Of a DNA stretch of 64,000 nucleotides, positions 57,342-62,679 are shown piece by piece. A program made the translations under genes and the position numbers. The notes below the pieces were generated by a model that was not told the DNA's origin, made no database searches, and saw only the letters and a list, made by a program, of their open reading frames with translations. The stretch comes from Mucilaginibacter sp. (GTDB lineage Bacteria > Bacteroidota > Bacteroidia > Sphingobacteriales > Sphingobacteriaceae): contig NZ_JBDSCA010000061.1 of the NCBI RefSeq assembly GCF_039921305.1, positions 11,153 to 75,152 on the forward strand, in the 5' to 3' direction. The first letter of the stretch is position 1; each line of letters opens with the position of its first letter.

Positions 57342-57374
57342 AGTCTCCCCTTTCGGGGGAGATTTAGAGGGGGC
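57342..57374. repeat. REP-like element overlapping a stop codon
   Basis: AGTCTCCCCTTTCGGGGGAGATTTAGAGGGGGC, related to the 41091-42868 family. Confidence 0.65.
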
Positions 57375-58809
57375 TAATCTTTATCCCAAACACATCCTTC
57401 AAAGCCCGCTTTGCCGAGTAATACCCGCACATGCCATGCACACCACCACCTGGTGGGGTCGACGATGAGCAGATATACAAACCCTTTGCCGAAGTACGGT
57501 AAGGCGAGCTTCGCAATACCGGCCGGGTAAACAACTGGCCAATATCAATCACGCCTCCATTAATATCACCACCAACATAATTAGGGTTATATTCTTCTAT
57601 CTGCTCAGTATTCATCGTATGGCGCGCCAATATCCTATCTTTAAAGCCGGGCGCGAAACGCTCAACCTGCTGCTCAATAATTGCCGTCATATCTTTGGTT
57701 GAACCATTCGGAACGTGGCAATATCCCCACACAGCCTGCTTCCCTTCGGGTGCCCGGCTACTATCAAACAAGCCTTGCTGGGCCAGCAGCACATAAGGCT
57801 TTTCGCTATGCTGTCCTTTCCATACCTCTTTTTCAGATAGTGCTATCTCCTCAAAACTGCCGCCTATATGTACCGTTCCGGCTTGCGAACATTCGGGTGC
57901 AGTAAATGGCACATTACCATCAATGGCCCAATCTACTTTAAAAACACCCATACCATAGCGGTAACGCTCCAGTTGCCATTTATAAAGCGGGCTCAATTTA
58001 TAACCTGCAATTTGCAGTAACTGCTTAGGGGTAACATCAAACAGTACCGCATGTGCCGATGGTAGCTGATCTAAACGTTTCACATAAAAACCAGTCTCTA
58101 TCTTACCACCTATCGAAGCAAAATATCCTGCCAAAGCATCTGCAATTGAGCTCGAACCACCTTTCGGGATAGGCCAGCCATACAAGTGCCCTGCCGACAT
58201 TAATACCAAACCAATAGCAGCCGTAGCAATATTCGACAACGGCTGAATAGCATGTGCTGCCATCCCGCCAAACAAAGCCTGGGCCTCCGCGGTTTTAAAG
58301 TGTTTAGCCAAAGTAGCAGCAGGCTTTAACCCCTGCAAACCAAACTGAGCCATAGCTATAGGGTGTTTCGGATAATGCAAGGGCCCTAAAACATCTGCGG
58401 CAATTAACGGCCAATTTTTAACAACCGGCTCCATCAAATCCAGGTAATTCTGCCTGTCGGCACCCAGTAATTCGGCCGTTCCGGTTAGTGATCTTTTCAA
58501 TACTACCGCGGTACCATTATCTAACGGATGCGCCACGGGCAAATCTGGCTGTATAAATTCCAATCCAAATTGAGCCAAAGGCAAAGTCTTAAAAAATGGC
58601 GAACCAACTGCCAGTGGGTGTATCGCCGAACAAACATCATGCACAAAGCCCGGCAACGTTAACTCTGCCGATCGCAAACCGCCACCAATCGAACCCTTGC
58701 CCTCCACCAGCAAAACCGATAAGCCCGATTGTTGCATAGCAATAGCAGCCGCAAGCCCATTAGGCCCAGAGCCAACCACTATAGCATCATAATCGCGCTT
58801 GTCCAACAT
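57364..58809 (-). CDS. Phytoene desaturase family FAD-dependent oxidoreductase
   Basis: IVVGSGPNGLAAA, IGGG.RS.ELTLPGFVHDVCSAIHP, YICSSSTPPGGGVHGMCG. Confidence 0.9.
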   Translation of the reverse strand: MLDKRDYDAIVVGSGPNGLAAAIAMQQSGLSVLLVEGKGSIGGGLRSAELTLPGFVHDVCSAIHPLAVGSPFFKTLPLAQFGLEFIQPDLPVAHPLDNGTAVVLKRSLTGTAELLGADRQNYLDLMEPVVKNWPLIAADVLGPLHYPKHPIAMAQFGLQGLKPAATLAKHFKTAEAQALFGGMAAHAIQPLSNIATAAIGLVLMSAGHLYGWPIPKGGSSSIADALAGYFASIGGKIETGFYVKRLDQLPSAHAVLFDVTPKQLLQIAGYKLSPLYKWQLERYRYGMGVFKVDWAIDGNVPFTAPECSQAGTVHIGGSFEEIALSEKEVWKGQHSEKPYVLLAQQGLFDSSRAPEGKQAVWGYCHVPNGSTKDMTAIIEQQVERFAPGFKDRILARHTMNTEQIEEYNPNYVGGDINGGVIDIGQLFTRPVLRSSPYRTSAKGLYICSSSTPPGGGVHGMCGYYSAKRALKDVFGIKISPL

Positions 58810-58815
58810 TTAGAT

Positions 58816-59012
58816 TTGGGTATTGAGATGGGAGTTTTAAGGCAATAACTTTAATAACAAGACTAACAAATTATGGGTATTTATGGGTATGCTTAATTAC
58901 AAATTATGGGTATTTTTCCTTGTTTTTTTGATACTCAATTATCAAATCCGCAACAAATCCATCAATAGTAACTGTAATTACCTCAATAATTTAAATAACA
59001 AAATATGGGTAT
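58816..59012. repeat. Five TGGGTAT copies upstream of the desaturase-family gene
   Basis: TTATGGGTAT in tandem at 58871-58890, again at 58904-58913, variants near 58816 and 59004. Confidence 0.6.
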
Positions 59013-59280
59013 AAAGGTTGTAAACTATTTGTGCAATATTGATCAACATCCTATCGCCCATTCGGGCGTCACACCTGAATACAAACAGTTTCAGCGTCCA
59101 CGCTTACGTGTGCATTTGGATCCGATAAACTATTGTTACTATTTAGGTTTCAAAGCATTGCGCTTAGTTCTAATACAAAAATACGAAAAATCAACGGCAT
59201 AGTCAGTACAGCATTTCAATGCTGGCAAATTAAACGCCATCAAAAAAACTCATTTGTTATCCAAAATTTTAGGGAATCCT

Positions 59281-59345
59281 GCCCCGGCGGGGCTACATAT
59301 TTGTAGAAAACAAAAGTAATTAGCTTTGTGCCTCGTAGAGGCTAC
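59281..59345. repeat. REP pair of a third family
   Basis: GCCCCGGCGGGGCTACATATTTGTAGAAA and GCCTCGTAGAGGCTAC short palindromes. Confidence 0.6.
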
Positions 59346-59371
59346 CCTTCCGGGGAGCTAAGCCCCCACAA

Positions 59372-59402
59372 AAAAAGCCCCACAATAAATTGCGAGGCTT
59401 TT
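59372..59402 (-). terminator. Probable terminator after lipoprotein A
   Basis: AAAAGCC..GGCTTTT imperfect stem with an A-tract on the plus strand. Confidence 0.55.
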
Positions 59403-59423
59403 CCTTTTCTAAAAAAAATAGAA

Positions 59424-59633
59424 TTACATTTTTTTAGCTACTGAGTCTTTTTTAACTACAGTGTCAGCTTTAGAAATTGAAGTGTCTTTTTTAGCTGTTG
59501 TGTCAGCAGCCATTTTAGCTGAATCTGCTTTTGCAGCTGAATCAGCAGCAGAAGTTTTTTTCGGACCACCGCAAGAAGCGAATGCTACTGCTACTACTAA
59601 CGCTAATGCGCTTAATTTGATAGAGTTTTTCAT
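59424..59633 (-). CDS. Small lipoprotein A (69 aa)
   Basis: MKNSIKLSALALVVAVAFAS-C21; mature part with DSA, DSA, DTT, DTV, DSV. Confidence 0.88.
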   Translation of the reverse strand: MKNSIKLSALALVVAVAFASCGGPKKTSAADSAAKADSAKMAADTTAKKDTSISKADTVVKKDSVAKKM

Positions 59634-59666
59634 GTTAGTTTTTTAAAAGTGATTAATAGTTTAGGC

Positions 59667-59695
59667 TTAATACCTAAAACGAAAAAAGGTAACCC
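59667..59695 (-). promoter_or_regulatory. ECF-type promoter GGGTTACC-N14-GTATTAA (gene A)
   Basis: Plus strand TTAATAC 59667-59673 and GGTAACCC 59688-59695. Confidence 0.8.
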
Positions 59696-59752
59696 AATTA
59701 TTTTGAAAAAAATAATTAAGCTACCCTTTTGTTATTAATTACTTAATAAAAA

Positions 59753-59962
59753 TTACTTTTTAGTGGTGCTATCAACAGTAGTAGTTGTTGTAGTTGTTGT
59801 AGCAGTGCTATCTTTCTTAGCAGCTGTATCAACTTTAGCAGTTGAATCTACAGTTGTAGTTTTAGTTGAATCTACAGTGCTGGTTGATTTGTTACCACCA
59901 CAAGCAACAACTGATAATGACAATACTAATGCTAAAGCGCCTAATTTGAATGAATTTTTCAT
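59753..59962 (-). CDS. Small lipoprotein B (69 aa)
   Basis: MKNSFKLGALALVLSLSVVA-C21; DST x4, DTA, poly-Thr. Confidence 0.88.
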   Translation of the reverse strand: MKNSFKLGALALVLSLSVVACGGNKSTSTVDSTKTTTVDSTAKVDTAAKKDSTATTTTTTTTVDSTTKK

Positions 59963-59987
59963 GTTTGAAGTTTTTATTATTTTAAGC

Positions 59988-60016
59988 TTAATACTAGCTT
60001 ATAAAGAAGGTAACCC
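59988..60016 (-). promoter_or_regulatory. ECF-type promoter GGGTTACC-N14-GTATTAA (gene B)
   Basis: TTAATAC 59988-59994, GGTAACCC 60009-60016. Confidence 0.8.
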
Positions 60017-60055
60017 TAAAAATTAAAATTAATTTCAGGGTTACGCTTCATCAAA

Positions 60056-60277
60056 TTACATTTTTTTAGTCTCTGTCTTTTTAGTTTCAGTTGTAACTGT
60101 AGTATCCTTTTGTACTGGAGCAGTAACAGATGTATCTTTCTTAACTGTATCAGTTACAATTGTAGATGAATCAGTTTTGGTTGTATCAGAACCTGTAGAA
60201 GTTTTGTTACCACCACAAGCAACAACTGATAATGATAATACTAAAGCTAAGGCACCTAATTTGAATGAGTTTTTCAT
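60056..60277 (-). CDS. Small lipoprotein C (73 aa)
   Basis: First 25 aa identical to B; DTT, DTV, DTT. Confidence 0.88.
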   Translation of the reverse strand: MKNSFKLGALALVLSLSVVACGGNKTSTGSDTTKTDSSTIVTDTVKKDTSVTAPVQKDTTVTTETKKTETKKM

Positions 60278-60300
60278 GATTTAATGTTTTTAATTTTAAC

Positions 60301-60329
60301 TTAATACAGATAACTTGAAAAGGTAACCC
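60301..60329 (-). promoter_or_regulatory. ECF-type promoter GGGTTACC-N14-GTATTAA (gene C)
   Basis: TTAATAC 60301-60307, GGTAACCC 60322-60329. Confidence 0.8.
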
Positions 60330-60375
60330 AATTATTTTAAAGAAAATATAAATCGTATCAGGATATTATATTTTA

Positions 60376-60648
60376 TTACTGCTTAGTAACTTTCTTTGTT
60401 GTAGTGGTAGTCTTCTTCTTTTCAACTTTGTTAGATACCGTATCAATAGGTTGCTTTAAACTTTTGTTTGATACCGTGTCAATAGGTTGCTTTAAGCTCT
60501 TGTTTGATACCGTGTCAAAAGGTTGCTTTAAACTCTTGTTTGATACTGTATCCTTACCTTGTTCTGTTGATTTTCCTTTTGGATCACAAGCTACAATGCT
60601 TGATGCTATTACCAAACCTAAAGCGGCTAATTTAAATGAATTTTTCAT
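60376..60648 (-). CDS. Small lipoprotein D (90 aa) with a 12-aa tandem repeat
   Basis: MKNSFKLAALGLVIASSIVA-C21; (DTVSNKSLKQPF/I) x3 plus DTVSNK. Confidence 0.88.
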   Translation of the reverse strand: MKNSFKLAALGLVIASSIVACDPKGKSTEQGKDTVSNKSLKQPFDTVSNKSLKQPIDTVSNKSLKQPIDTVSNKVEKKKTTTTTKKVTKQ

Positions 60649-60674
60649 GATGGGTTTTTTGGTTTAATTTACCC

Positions 60675-60703
60675 TTAATACCTTATTATGAATAAGGTAA
60701 CCC
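60675..60703 (-). promoter_or_regulatory. ECF-type promoter GGGTTACC-N14-GTATTAA (gene D)
   Basis: TTAATAC 60675-60681, GGTAACCC 60696-60703. Confidence 0.8.
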
Positions 60704-60899
60704 TATACATTATGCACTATATTTCGACTATCATAAGCATCTGCTCTTAATGTTTAAAAAATAGCTGACAACTATTCAGCATGTTAAATAATTAAACACG
60801 GCCATTGGTATAAATAAGTGCTTTGGTAAGCATATTTGCACTATTTTTGATTTTGTGACAATGCACCAACACCCCATCAAACTTATTTATATAATTGTT

Positions 60900-60928
60900 G
60901 GGTTACCATTTGAAAATAAACGTATTAA
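60900..60928 (+). promoter_or_regulatory. Same promoter motif in front of the sigma gene (autoregulation)
   Basis: GGGTTACC 60900-60907, GTATTAA 60922-60928, spacer 14. Confidence 0.8.
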
Positions 60929-60931
60929 GTA

Positions 60932-61501
60932 GTGAATAATAATGTGAACAATCCGGCACCGGCAGATAACGAAGCTATTTTAGGCATCCTGAATAACTCG
61001 GAGGCCATGCTTAAACGGATTTATTTAGCATACTTCCCCATGGTACTCCAACTGGTTATCACCAATAATGGTAACGAAGACGATGCCAAGGACATTTACC
61101 AGGAAGCTATTATCGTTCTTTATAATAAGGTTAGGGCAGGCAATTTTGAACTAAGCAGCAAGCTTAAAACATTTATCTACTCTGTTTGTCGAAGGTTATG
61201 GCTCAAAAGGTTAACCCAACTGAGCCGTTACGGTGGCGACATTCACGACCTGCAGGAGTATTTACCCGTAGAAGAAGATATAGCCAACCACGAAGAGAAA
61301 GATATACAGTTCAACAAAATGACTGGTGCATTAGGTTTGTTAGGCGAACCCTGCAAAACCATTATTGAAGACTTTTATATAAACGACAGATCGATGCAGG
61401 AGATCTGCGAAAAATTTGGCTATACCAATGCGGATAATGCCAAAACACAAAAATACAAATGCCTGCAACGCTTAAAGAAACTATTCTTTCAGCAAAAATA
61501 A
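60932..61501 (+). CDS. ECF sigma-70 factor
   Basis: Region 2 DAKDIYQEAIIVLY..LKTFIYSVCRRLWLKRL; region 4 LGEPCKTIIEDFY..SMQEICEKFGYTNADNAKTQKYKCLQRLKK. Confidence 0.92.
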   Translation: MNNNVNNPAPADNEAILGILNNSEAMLKRIYLAYFPMVLQLVITNNGNEDDAKDIYQEAIIVLYNKVRAGNFELSSKLKTFIYSVCRRLWLKRLTQLSRYGGDIHDLQEYLPVEEDIANHEEKDIQFNKMTGALGLLGEPCKTIIEDFYINDRSMQEICEKFGYTNADNAKTQKYKCLQRLKKLFFQQK

Positions 61502-61514
61502 AAGGAGTAAAAAG

Positions 61515-62618
61515 ATGAGTGATATTGAATTAATGGCAGTAGTTGAACGGTACCTTAACGGCGAAATGAATGCCGATGAGCGTATCCGCTTTGAAATGCT
61601 TCGCCGCGAAAACGCCGAGGTTGATAATACAGTTAAAGAACACCAGGAATTTACCGGCCGCCTAAAACAATATGGCGAACGCCTGGCGTTCGAAAACTTA
61701 TTGAACGATATCCATAACGAAATTGATGTTCAGGCCCTGAAAGATGAGTTTGTACATCACCCATCATTAATAGTTCGTTTATGGAGAAACCACCACTCAA
61801 AAATATCTGTAGCGGCATCAATTACCATTTTCGCGGTTTTAGGTACTTTATTCCTTACGGGATATTTGAAAAGCCAGAAACAAGAGAATGATGTAATTTA
61901 CCTTAAGCACGAAATTGCCCAGGTTAAGCATAAAAACGATGTGATATCGCAGTCTATTAATACCTTAAATATACGGCCAAAACAAATGGCGCCATCAAAC
62001 TATCATGGCACCGGAACAGGTTTCGCTATATCTTCCGACGGTTACCTGGCAACTAATTTCCACGTAATAAACGGAGCCGATTCTGTATACATCCAAAACG
62101 CTGATGGTACTGCCTATCACGCCAAAATTGTATCTACCGATCCGGCAAATGATATCGCTATCCTAAAAATAACCGACCCATCTTTCAAATCATTTGGTGC
62201 ATTACCTTATGGGTTCAAAAGAAGTAAGTCAGATTTAGGCGAAGATGTATATACTTACGGTTACTCAAAAGATGATGGTTTTTATTCAAAAGGCTATATA
62301 AGTTCCGGTAATGGCTTTAAAGGTGATACCGTAAAATATCAACTCAGCATGGATGTTGACTTTGGTAACAGTGGTGGTCCGTTGTTAGATGCTAAAGGCA
62401 ATGTAATAGCCATTATAAGCAGTAAACAAGCCCATACCGATGGCGCCTTCGCTATCAAATCAAAATATTTATATAAAGCCATTCAGGCCATTGCTCCCGA
62501 TTCGTTAAGATCAGACAAAATTGTACTAAGCTCTAAAAGCAAGTTTGCCAACCTGGGCCGTACACAGCAATTGAATAAATTACAGAATTACGTATTCATG
62601 GTAAAGGTTTACAATTAA
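61515..62618 (+). CDS. Anti-sigma-like N-terminus + TM helix + trypsin-like (S1C) serine protease, no PDZ
   Basis: VERYLNGEM..ER..FE, TM ISVAASITIFAVLGTLFLTGYL, intact triad ATNFHV / NDIAIL / GNSGGP. Confidence 0.88.
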   Translation: MSDIELMAVVERYLNGEMNADERIRFEMLRRENAEVDNTVKEHQEFTGRLKQYGERLAFENLLNDIHNEIDVQALKDEFVHHPSLIVRLWRNHHSKISVAASITIFAVLGTLFLTGYLKSQKQENDVIYLKHEIAQVKHKNDVISQSINTLNIRPKQMAPSNYHGTGTGFAISSDGYLATNFHVINGADSVYIQNADGTAYHAKIVSTDPANDIAILKITDPSFKSFGALPYGFKRSKSDLGEDVYTYGYSKDDGFYSKGYISSGNGFKGDTVKYQLSMDVDFGNSGGPLLDAKGNVIAIISSKQAHTDGAFAIKSKYLYKAIQAIAPDSLRSDKIVLSSKSKFANLGRTQQLNKLQNYVFMVKVYN

Positions 62619-62637: not shown

Positions 62638-62679
62638 AAACCAAAAAGGGATAGCAATTGTGCTATCCCTTTTTGGTTT
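62638..62679 (+). terminator. Intrinsic terminator of the sigma-protease operon
   Basis: 19-bp stem AAACCAAAAAGGGATAGCA / TGCTATCCCTTTTTGGTTT. Confidence 0.85.

Follow-up and report, generated by a model that had tools for sequence, protein, structure and literature searches.

A conserved Bacteroidota locus predicted to encode an ECF sigma factor, an anti-sigma-like domain fused to a DegS-like protease and sequon-rich lipoproteins

Introduction

In the sigmaE-RseA-DegS-RseP pathway of Escherichia coli and the AlgU-MucA-AlgW pathway of Pseudomonas aeruginosa, a sigma factor of the extracytoplasmic function (ECF) type with an autoregulated promoter is paired with a single-pass anti-sigma factor that has a class I cytoplasmic domain, together with a DegS-type S1C protease in the periplasm and a site-2 protease. 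The sigmaE pathway governs some 100 envelope-biogenesis genes. A further precedent is RsgI9 of Clostridium thermocellum (PDB 7sjy); no other anti-sigma ectodomain of S1C peptidase fold has a solved structure. Signalling by RsgI factors involves autoproteolysis, after which RseP and ClpXP act (PMC12203970, PMC10328401); in RsgI9 the autocleavage takes place in a separate periplasmic domain, and the S1C domain is described as cellulose-binding (PMC12203970). Here we analyse a locus from the 5.66 Mb genome of a soil Mucilaginibacter, contained in a stretch of 64,000 nucleotides (nt) referred to as the window (contig C61:11153-75152). In this locus an ECF-type sigma gene is followed by the gene of a membrane-anchored serine protease with an anti-sigma-like N-terminal domain, hereafter the fusion, and lies divergent from four small lipoprotein genes.

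The locus is predicted from its sequence to hold the same elements as the sigmaE and AlgU pathways: an ECF sigma factor, a single-pass anti-sigma factor with a predicted class I cytoplasmic domain, a DegS-type S1C domain in the periplasm, a site-2 protease encoded in the genome and an autoregulated sigma promoter. Furthermore, the two domains of the fusion are structurally closest to MucA/RslA and DegS. In contrast to these pathways, protease and anti-sigma factor form one polypeptide, which has no PDZ domain, no RseB-like gene is present, and the predicted regulon consists of the module's own operon and the small lipoproteins. DegS-style activation by the C-terminal peptides of outer-membrane proteins cannot apply as such, since a PDZ domain is lacking. 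RsgI9, for its part, is a member of the sigmaI system of Firmicutes with an N-domain of the RsgI type, and no sigma partner of this orphan is known, whereas the fusion has an ECF partner, a class-I-like N-domain and a conserved catalytic triad. No match to the RsgI_N domain was found in the fusion and its partner is an ECF sigma factor, so it is not of the RsgI/sigmaI type. The fusion hence lies outside both the HtrA family as defined (no PDZ) and the RsgI family (other N-domain, other sigma class).

We consider it likely, with a probability of about 0.7, that the locus is an autoregulated ECF sigma/anti-sigma module in which the anti-sigma factor would carry its own DegS-like protease and the regulon would essentially be the module itself. 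Searches for fusions of anti-sigma factors with trypsin or S1C domains, for Mucilaginibacter ECF factors and for autoproteolysis in Bacteroidota returned nothing relevant beyond RsgI9 from the searchable literature. Neither the ECF reclassification (PMC7826278) nor the paper on ECF family evolution mentions a protease-fused anti-sigma factor, at least in its main text. The arrangement is thus apparently undescribed in that literature, and the locus appears to be a real, deeply conserved, uncharacterised ECF signalling module. A preliminary description of this DNA had likewise recognised no characterised system; this agrees with the literature searches, with the qualification that a family name (PG1828) exists close to the lipoproteins and that RsgI9 is a partial precedent. 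The module spans three orders of soil and freshwater Bacteroidota. It would merge a sensor protease with the anti-sigma factor that is normally its target, which would make it a minimal and genetically tractable system for the study of regulated proteolysis, and possibly a switch for synthetic biology that is both compact and orthogonal. One private motif, with 2-6 sites per genome, suffices to read the predicted regulon off the sequence, making the predictions unusually easy to test.

Organisation of the locus

Four tandem paralogous lipoprotein genes, each with its lipobox Cys at residue 21, had been described as lying divergent from an ECF sigma gene. The open reading frame (ORF) listing and direct reading of the sequence confirm all of these ORFs, with the lipoprotein genes on the minus strand and the sigma and fusion genes on the plus strand. 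A gap of 13 nt separates the sigma stop codon from the fusion gene. The features are as follows (window positions; protein lengths in amino acids, aa).

59424-59633, minus strand: lipoprotein 1, 69 aa; Cys21 lipobox, mature part rich in K/A/D/S/T, 5 O-glycosylation sequons D-[ST]-[AILMTV]
59667-59695, minus strand: predicted promoter motif of lipoprotein 1, GGGTTACC-N14-GTATTAA, ending 33 nt before the ATG
59753-59962, minus strand: lipoprotein 2, 69 aa; Cys21, mature part 39% Thr, 5 sequons
59988-60016, minus strand: predicted promoter motif of lipoprotein 2, ending 25 nt before the ATG
60056-60277, minus strand: lipoprotein 3, 73 aa; Cys21, 3 sequons
60301-60329, minus strand: predicted promoter motif of lipoprotein 3, ending 23 nt before the ATG
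60376-60648, minus strand: lipoprotein 4, 90 aa; Cys21, 4 sequons
60675-60703, minus strand: predicted promoter motif of lipoprotein 4, ending 26 nt before the ATG
60900-60928, plus strand: predicted promoter motif of the sigma/fusion operon (putative autoregulation), with the GTG 3 nt further on
60932-61501, plus strand: ECF-type sigma factor, 189 aa, GTG start (TIGR02937, Sigma70_r2)
61515-62618, plus strand: fusion protein, 367 aa (Trypsin_2)
61515-61799, plus strand: fusion residues 1-95, predicted cytoplasmic anti-sigma-like helical domain (AF2, Foldseek, zf-HC2)
61803-61868, plus strand: fusion residues 97-118, single transmembrane helix ISVAASITIFAVLGTLFLTGYL (sequence; helix 99-114 in the AF2 model)
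61875-61970, plus strand: fusion residues 121-152, predicted long periplasmic stalk helix, the least conserved segment (AF2 model, alignment)
62007-62504, plus strand: fusion residues 165-330, S1C (DegS/HtrA-like) protease domain with triad H183, D213, S286 (Trypsin_2, Foldseek)
62505-62618, plus strand: fusion residues 331-367 and stop codon, conserved C-terminal tail QQ-x-KK-x3-Y-V-F-M-V-K-V-Y, helix and last beta-strand

The sigma factor matches both the NCBIfam sigma70-ECF model TIGR02937 (61.1 bits, cut-off 42.9; residues 28-183 of 189 aligned) and Pfam Sigma70_r2 (30.2 bits, cut-off 24). Its domain content, sigma2 and sigma4 only with an ECF family match, is that of the ECF (group 4) sigma-70 factors. 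None of the specific NCBIfam subfamily models reaches its cut-off, and the numbered ECF group to which the protein belongs may already be catalogued. Orthologues from Chitinophagaceae and Hymenobacteraceae are 38-54% identical.

A shared putative promoter motif points to a small regulon

The lipoprotein genes and the sigma gene had been reported to share one identical motif. It was found that the window contains GGGTTACC-N14-GTATTAA five times as an exact match, compared to 0.00 expected (100 shuffles), and that these five sites are the sole exact matches in the entire genome. Four are located on the minus strand, 23-33 nt 5' of the lipoprotein ATGs, while the single plus-strand site precedes the sigma GTG. 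The layout is bipartite, with a -35 element GGGTTAC(C), a T-tract, approximately 14 nt and a -10 element GTATTAA. Judged from the sequence, a -35 box with a T-tract combined with a -10 box containing GTA is ECF-like; for comparison, the sigmaE promoter has GGAACTT and the sigmaW promoter TGAAAC-N16-CGTATA. The spacer is fixed in length and variable in sequence across the loci compared. For the 76 lipoprotein genes collected from Sphingobacteriaceae, the motif lies 17-47 nt from the ATG without exception; for those from Chitinophagaceae and Hymenobacteraceae, the distance is 19-42 nt in 19/20 cases. A predicted bipartite promoter shared by the sigma gene and its putative targets, as is typical of autoregulated ECF factors, is thus found in silico in three orders.

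In two Sphingobacteriaceae genera (g44 and g46) no lipoprotein gene adjoins the sigma gene, and it was predicted prior to the genome search that an unlinked lipoprotein gene would carry the motif. In four of the six genomes (loci L218, L221, L222 and L224) there are exactly two motif sites: the first belongs to the sigma gene, the second to an unlinked gene for a lipoprotein of this kind (69-72 aa), which lies on the same chromosome at a distance of up to 2.6 Mb. The remaining two genomes show no exact match besides that at the sigma gene. As the unlinked lipoprotein genes keep the motif, it tracks the genes rather than the locus, and therefore fits a regulon and not a local duplication artefact. 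The motif could instead be the operator of some other regulator, or a repeat spread by tandem duplication: GGTTACC is nearly palindromic, and four of the five window copies could stem from duplication of one gene unit. However, a motif of fixed spacing and variable spacer sequence is present at single-copy and unlinked lipoprotein genes as well as at sigma genes in three orders, with the ECF-like layout described above, which makes either alternative highly improbable.

The start codon of the sigma gene (GTG, or TTG in one case) is located just 2-3 nt past GTATTAA in 40/43 Sphingobacteriaceae loci analysed. Where this gap is 3 nt, as in the window, the box ends in TAA as an in-frame stop codon. 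In Chitinophagaceae, the first in-frame start (nearly always GTG) lies 7-12 nt past the box. A comparison of the first 100 nt after the GTG in 34 sequences shows zero stops and zero indels, with a diversity of 0.60 at third versus 0.17 at second codon positions; this stretch encodes a helix, xDxE-[VI]-I-x-G-I-L-N-N-S, that precedes region 2.1 of ECF sigma factors. Given this coding constraint, sigma translation most likely begins at that GTG. The sequence suggests a sigma mRNA that is leaderless, or nearly so, and GUG-initiated.

Two of the lipoprotein -35 boxes sit in the 3' arm of a hairpin located downstream of the preceding paralogue. The first hairpin (59683-59730) lies downstream of lipoprotein 2 and holds the -35 box of lipoprotein 1, while the second (around 60010-60047, arms GTAACCCT/AGGGTTAC) is found just past the stop codon of the preceding paralogue. 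Since the -35 box itself forms the 3' hairpin arm, the terminator overlaps with the promoter that follows.

The whole genome was scanned with a position-weight matrix derived from 82 Mucilaginibacter motif sites. The scan recovered the five window sites with scores of 30.8-46.2 and one candidate sixth site scoring 31.6, AGGTTACC-N14-GTATTAA, on the minus strand outside the window (contig C39:6198-6242); the next best score is 20.3. The gene whose ATG follows the sixth site by 20 nt lies upstream of lysS, encodes a membrane protein of 114 aa with four helices and is a possible extra regulon member. A wider regulon in the source genome was also considered and rejected, as relaxed patterns and the matrix scan together yield just this one convincing extra site. 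A search of 15 Mucilaginibacter genomes with the shortened pattern GGTTAC-N15-GTATTAA gave 0-5 sites in each, nearly always within the module. Off-locus sites amount to approximately one per genome: one precedes a lipoprotein gene and two, in two relatives, precede genes of homologous small membrane proteins (94-106 aa); the remaining sites are probably due to chance. The predicted regulon is hence nearly self-contained, and the use of that term in the preliminary description is fair in view of the scans of the source genome and of the 15 genomes.

Some relatives contain an extra motif, oriented like the sigma gene and not followed by an ORF, at 40-125 nt 5' of the sigma promoter; it may be a tandem promoter or give rise to a short transcript. 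These sites are:

Locus L038, 4264-4292, plus strand: extra upstream motif
Locus L039, 4265-4293, plus strand: extra upstream motif
Locus L024, 4255-4283, plus strand: extra upstream motif
Locus L196, 2130-2159, plus strand: extra upstream motif
Locus L192, 1370-1399, minus strand: extra upstream motif

Conservation across three orders

Conserved linkage of the genes within Sphingobacteriaceae had been put forward as a key expectation, and the module was found to recur throughout the genus, the family and three orders. The full-length fusion is present in 23/24 Mucilaginibacter genomes. Among the 23 loci fetched from this genus, one of which is cut by a contig end, 22 have GGGTTAC[C/A/T]-N14-GTATTAA before the sigma gene and before 2-4 divergent lipoprotein genes (59-87 aa). 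The motif precedes the sigma gene in all 57 named Mucilaginibacter loci with full flanks. These loci carry 0 (4 loci), 1 (10), 2 (24), 3 (18) or 4 (1) lipoprotein copies. The window is at the top of this range and represents the most expanded form, with four putative output genes.

Within Sphingobacteriaceae (200 genomes), approximately 25 of 37 genera encode the full-length fusion. In the other genera sampled from this family, the motif precedes the sigma gene in 20/20 cases and in 17/20 also 1-3 neighbouring small lipoprotein genes. A phylum-wide survey of 400 genomes revealed further full-length homologues in two families, which a look-up of exact sequences identified as Chitinophagaceae (Phnomibacter, Puia) and Hymenobacteraceae (Hymenobacter). 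In all 18 loci from these two families the sigma and fusion genes are adjacent, a small lipoprotein gene is divergent from them and the motif is again present, at a fusion identity of 31-39%. Sequence comparison thus indicates that the set of sigma factor, fusion, motif and lipoprotein is conserved in Sphingobacteriales, Chitinophagales and Cytophagales.

The fusion protein combines an anti-sigma-like domain with an S1C protease

Trypsin_2 is the sole Pfam domain detected in the fusion (2.7e-25). This match and the single membrane helix bear out the earlier claim of a membrane-anchored trypsin-like protease behind the sigma gene. Similarity to the DegP, DegS, MarP and HhoA equivalog models is weak and far below all cut-offs. 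An AlphaFold2 (AF2) model of the whole protein, with a predicted local distance difference test score (pLDDT) of 70, contains three N-terminal helices, a membrane helix (99-114) and a stalk helix (121-152), followed by a domain of chymotrypsin fold and a tail made up of a short helix and a beta-strand. The best PDB matches of the protease in Foldseek are DegS, DegS-deltaPDZ, MucD, HtrA1 and Deg1 (E ~1e-11), with the S1C-NTF2 ectodomain of the C. thermocellum anti-sigma factor RsgI9 (PDB 7sjy) at rank 16. The chymotrypsin fold and His-Asp-Ser triad of HtrA/DegS (MEROPS S1C) are hence present. No PDZ domain was detected with Pfam or NCBIfam, and only about 37 residues follow the protease domain; within these, the tail QQ-x-KK...YVFMVKVY is conserved among the aligned fusions.

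Residues H183, D213 and S286 show no variation among 14 Mucilaginibacter sequences and are kept in 56/57 alignment rows from the three orders, the exception being a mis-extracted fragment of 20 residues. Every full-length sequence has both the triad and the GNSGGP motif, at identities of 31-100%, which argues for catalysis by the S1C domain. Self-cleavage by this domain is a tentative proposal, to which we would give slightly less than even odds. The fusion could alternatively be a true anti-sigma factor in which the S1C domain is a ligand sensor, or a quality-control protease for other substrates, with the site-1 cut made by a separate protease. RsgI9 offers a precedent, given that its S1C-like ectodomain is reported to bind cellulose, and the genome does encode other HtrA-like proteases of 512-520 aa. 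The retention of triad and GNSGGP across three orders speaks against a mere sensor, as does the lack of any other protease gene conserved in the locus, and we regard this alternative as unlikely. A single Peptidase_M50 protein (RseP-type site-2 protease) is encoded in the genome, at contig C59:8804-10057.

As the protease domain dominates fold searches with the whole protein, the N-domain (residues 1-97) was modelled alone (AF2 pLDDT 89). The top Foldseek matches are cytoplasmic MucA (with AlgU), RslA and RsiW, with a root-mean-square deviation of ~2.2 Å over 40-44 residues, and class I anti-sigma cytoplasmic domains account for 8 of the 12 best matches. Pfam zf-HC2, an anti-sigma N-terminal model, is the commonest family match (12/24 homologues, best 2.6e-4), and NCBIfam anti-sigma models match three homologues. 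The HxxxCxxC zinc motif of the zinc-binding anti-sigma (ZAS) subclass is absent from residues 1-95, which contain zero Cys; the domain is therefore not a zinc-binding anti-sigma domain and, if an anti-sigma domain at all, is of the non-zinc kind. A profile of the N-domain searched against 1.84 billion representative proteins retrieved 320 clusters. The full-length ones encode proteins of 353-394 aa, and the domain hence occurs essentially in this fusion alone. In all loci the fusion gene lies directly 3' of the sigma gene and its product has a single membrane helix; no other anti-sigma gene was found in any locus examined.

Public annotation of the fusion is confined to 'serine protease Do', 'S1C family serine protease' or 'trypsin-like peptidase domain-containing protein', and misses the proposed signalling role. 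If this annotation were the whole story, the N-domain would not be an anti-sigma domain and the gene would encode a co-transcribed membrane HtrA-like protease, comparable to htrA/pepD near sigE in mycobacteria. In favour of this, the statistical support for the anti-sigma domain is weak throughout. It does not sit well with the class I domains among the best fold matches, with an N-domain that is conserved and confined to this architecture, or with the canonical anti-sigma gene position (in the window, 13 nt past the sigma stop) in every locus without an alternative anti-sigma gene. A plain protease is thus very unlikely. Of the anti-sigma/protease fusion proposed in the preliminary description, the protease half is well founded (Trypsin_2, DegS fold, triad), while the predicted anti-sigma half rests on weak but consistent fold and profile matches.

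Lipoproteins as arrays of O-glycosylation sequons

Each lipoprotein begins with MKNS(F/I)KL..., followed by a hydrophobic stretch and a lipobox with its Cys at residue 21. The genes are tandem paralogues with a period of 315-371 nt, and between units 2 and 3 the DNA that covers the start region and the signal peptide is 90% identical. In the gene of lipoprotein 4 (60392-60561), a 36-nt repeat encoding DTVSNKSLKQP(I/F) is present in three to four tandem copies; with one sequon per repeat, sequon number appears to grow by repeat expansion.

The mature lipoproteins are of low complexity, rich in T/K/D/S/A, and contain 3-5 D-[ST]-[AILMTV] each. D-(S/T)-(A/I/L/V/M/T) is the established sequon of general O-glycosylation in Bacteroidota (PMC8550257, PMC8729774). 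In Porphyromonas gingivalis, the substrates are mainly periplasmic, inner-membrane and lipoproteins, and abundant surface proteins are avoided (PMC8729774). The window lipoproteins have 5.7-10.2 sequons per 100 aa compared to 0.28 in a proxy proteome, a 20- to 36-fold excess; the 99.9th percentile of that proteome is 2.7 per 100 aa. The enrichment also exceeds that of composition-matched shuffles (P <0.0005 to 0.04 for the four lipoproteins). Among 96 module lipoproteins from three orders, Asp is followed by Ser/Thr in 81-95% of all cases and forms part of a full sequon in 72-85%. Relatives have 0-8 sequons per lipoprotein. The window lipoproteins thus have the features of Bacteroidota O-glycoproteins, i.e. 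a lipoprotein signal peptide and 3-5 sequons, and these sequon statistics support the earlier suggestion that they are probably glycosylated. Known O-glycoproteins of the phylum have few sites on folded proteins, while the module lipoproteins, with 5.7-11.6 sequons per 100 aa, consist of little beyond sequon arrays. The residues past Cys+1 are G, K, S or N, then G/S/N/K, and do not resemble the acidic surface-export signals of Bacteroidota lipoproteins. For this reason the lipoproteins are probably periplasm-facing.

We give an even chance to the lipoproteins being the glycan-carrier output of the module. Such output in the form of O-glycosylation-site arrays would point to an unexplored role of phylum-wide O-glycosylation in envelope stress. 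The lipoproteins could instead regulate the protease domain as its partners or serve it as sentinel substrates, comparable to RseB/MucB, RcsF or NlpE. A matured, glycosylated lipoprotein would then keep the protease quiet, whereas under-glycosylated or mislocalised tails would bind and activate it, allowing O-glycosylation or maturation to be monitored. The sequon is indeed the sole conserved feature of the mature lipoproteins, with net charge, length and other residues drifting between genera (Lys-rich in Mucilaginibacter, acidic elsewhere). It is well established that disordered tails are typical ligands of the HtrA family and that regulators such as rseB belong to the regulon of their own sigma factor; moreover, hardly any further regulon member is visible. 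On the other hand, it is not evident what would be gained from a circuit that makes only its own components. In g44 and g46 the lipoprotein gene is unlinked, 4/57 Mucilaginibacter loci lack a neighbouring motif-bearing lipoprotein gene by the criteria used, and 2-4 copies suit bulk output better than a sensor. Both the regulatory role and this mode of monitoring are therefore rather improbable. There is only a slim chance of a full surveillance circuit for O-glycosylation or lipoprotein maturation, in which under-glycosylated tails would activate the fused protease and this would destroy its own anti-sigma half. If true, it would be the first envelope-stress pathway to report glycosylation status and the first ECF system with site-1 protease and anti-sigma factor as one self-cleaving molecule.

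The lipoproteins resemble PG1828 of P. gingivalis, which is triacylated and TLR2-activating, in their similar signal peptide and D/S/T-rich tail. PG1828 is an abundant TLR2-activating lipoprotein (PMC13466725), and PG1827, with the consecutive locus tag, is an ECF sigma factor (PMC9862357). Against the NCBIfam model NF050142 (PG1828 family lipoprotein; cut-off 50 bits), three of the window lipoproteins reach 35.8, 31.5 and 17.1 bits, while the fourth gives no match. The model matches 34/40 module lipoproteins from relatives (E <=0.01, best 2.9e-15), and members above the cut-off include tandem module-type copies beside the sigma-fusion pair in a Sphingobacteriaceae genome. Around members from other Bacteroidota families, both the motif and this sigma factor are absent within 1.5 kb. 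The family is hence broader than the regulon.

Proposed mechanism

In the proposed autoregulated module, the cytoplasmic N-domain (residues 1-95) would sequester the sigma factor at rest. An envelope signal would switch on the S1C domain in the periplasm; the triad of this domain is intact, and no PDZ accompanies it. This domain would then cut the periplasmic stalk, the proposed cleavage region, either in its own chain (cis) or in a neighbouring molecule of an oligomer, and so replace the separate site-1 protease (DegS, AlgW) of a sigmaE-type pathway. Release of the sigma factor would be completed by the single RseP-type site-2 protease and cytoplasmic proteases. The free sigma factor would transcribe its own operon, providing both positive and negative feedback, as well as the lipoprotein genes. 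The lipoproteins, as disordered, membrane-tethered sequon arrays, would furnish the envelope with O-glycan on its periplasmic side, the output gene having been amplified to four copies in this species.

Several observations weigh against this scheme. The N-domain fold matches have weak E-values (1.2-6.7), although this is expected for a helical unit of just 45 residues, and a PDB sequence-profile search with the N-domain returned no anti-sigma factor, only spurious helical matches (PPAR). The S1C ectodomain of RsgI9 is reported as a binding module and not a protease (PMC12203970). A regulon of small lipoproteins only is an odd output for a stress system. Somewhat against it, too, is the gap of 2-3 nt between box and GTG, which requires either a leaderless mRNA with an unusually short discriminator or a non-standard -10 element.

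Flanking sequence

Direct reading of the sequence places a hairpin at each end of the module:

59370-59404, minus strand: intrinsic terminator 3' of the last lipoprotein gene, hairpin AGCCTCGCAA/TTGTGGGGCT followed by T7
62640-62679, plus strand: hairpin ACCAAAAAGGGATAGCA/TGCTATCCCTTTTTGGT and T-run 3' of the fusion gene, at the operon end (not listed by the terminator scan)

Between 58700 and 63100, no Rfam family scores above threshold, and sub-threshold matches fall on the terminator hairpins only. TATGGGTAT occurs in four copies within 140 nt (58872-59012), between an oxidoreductase gene (57364-58809) and the lipoprotein array; the whole window has 5 copies versus 0.9 expected. Downstream of the array, a GC-rich and palindrome-rich segment (59230-59345; ccccggcgggg...ccttccgggg) may be a REP-like element.

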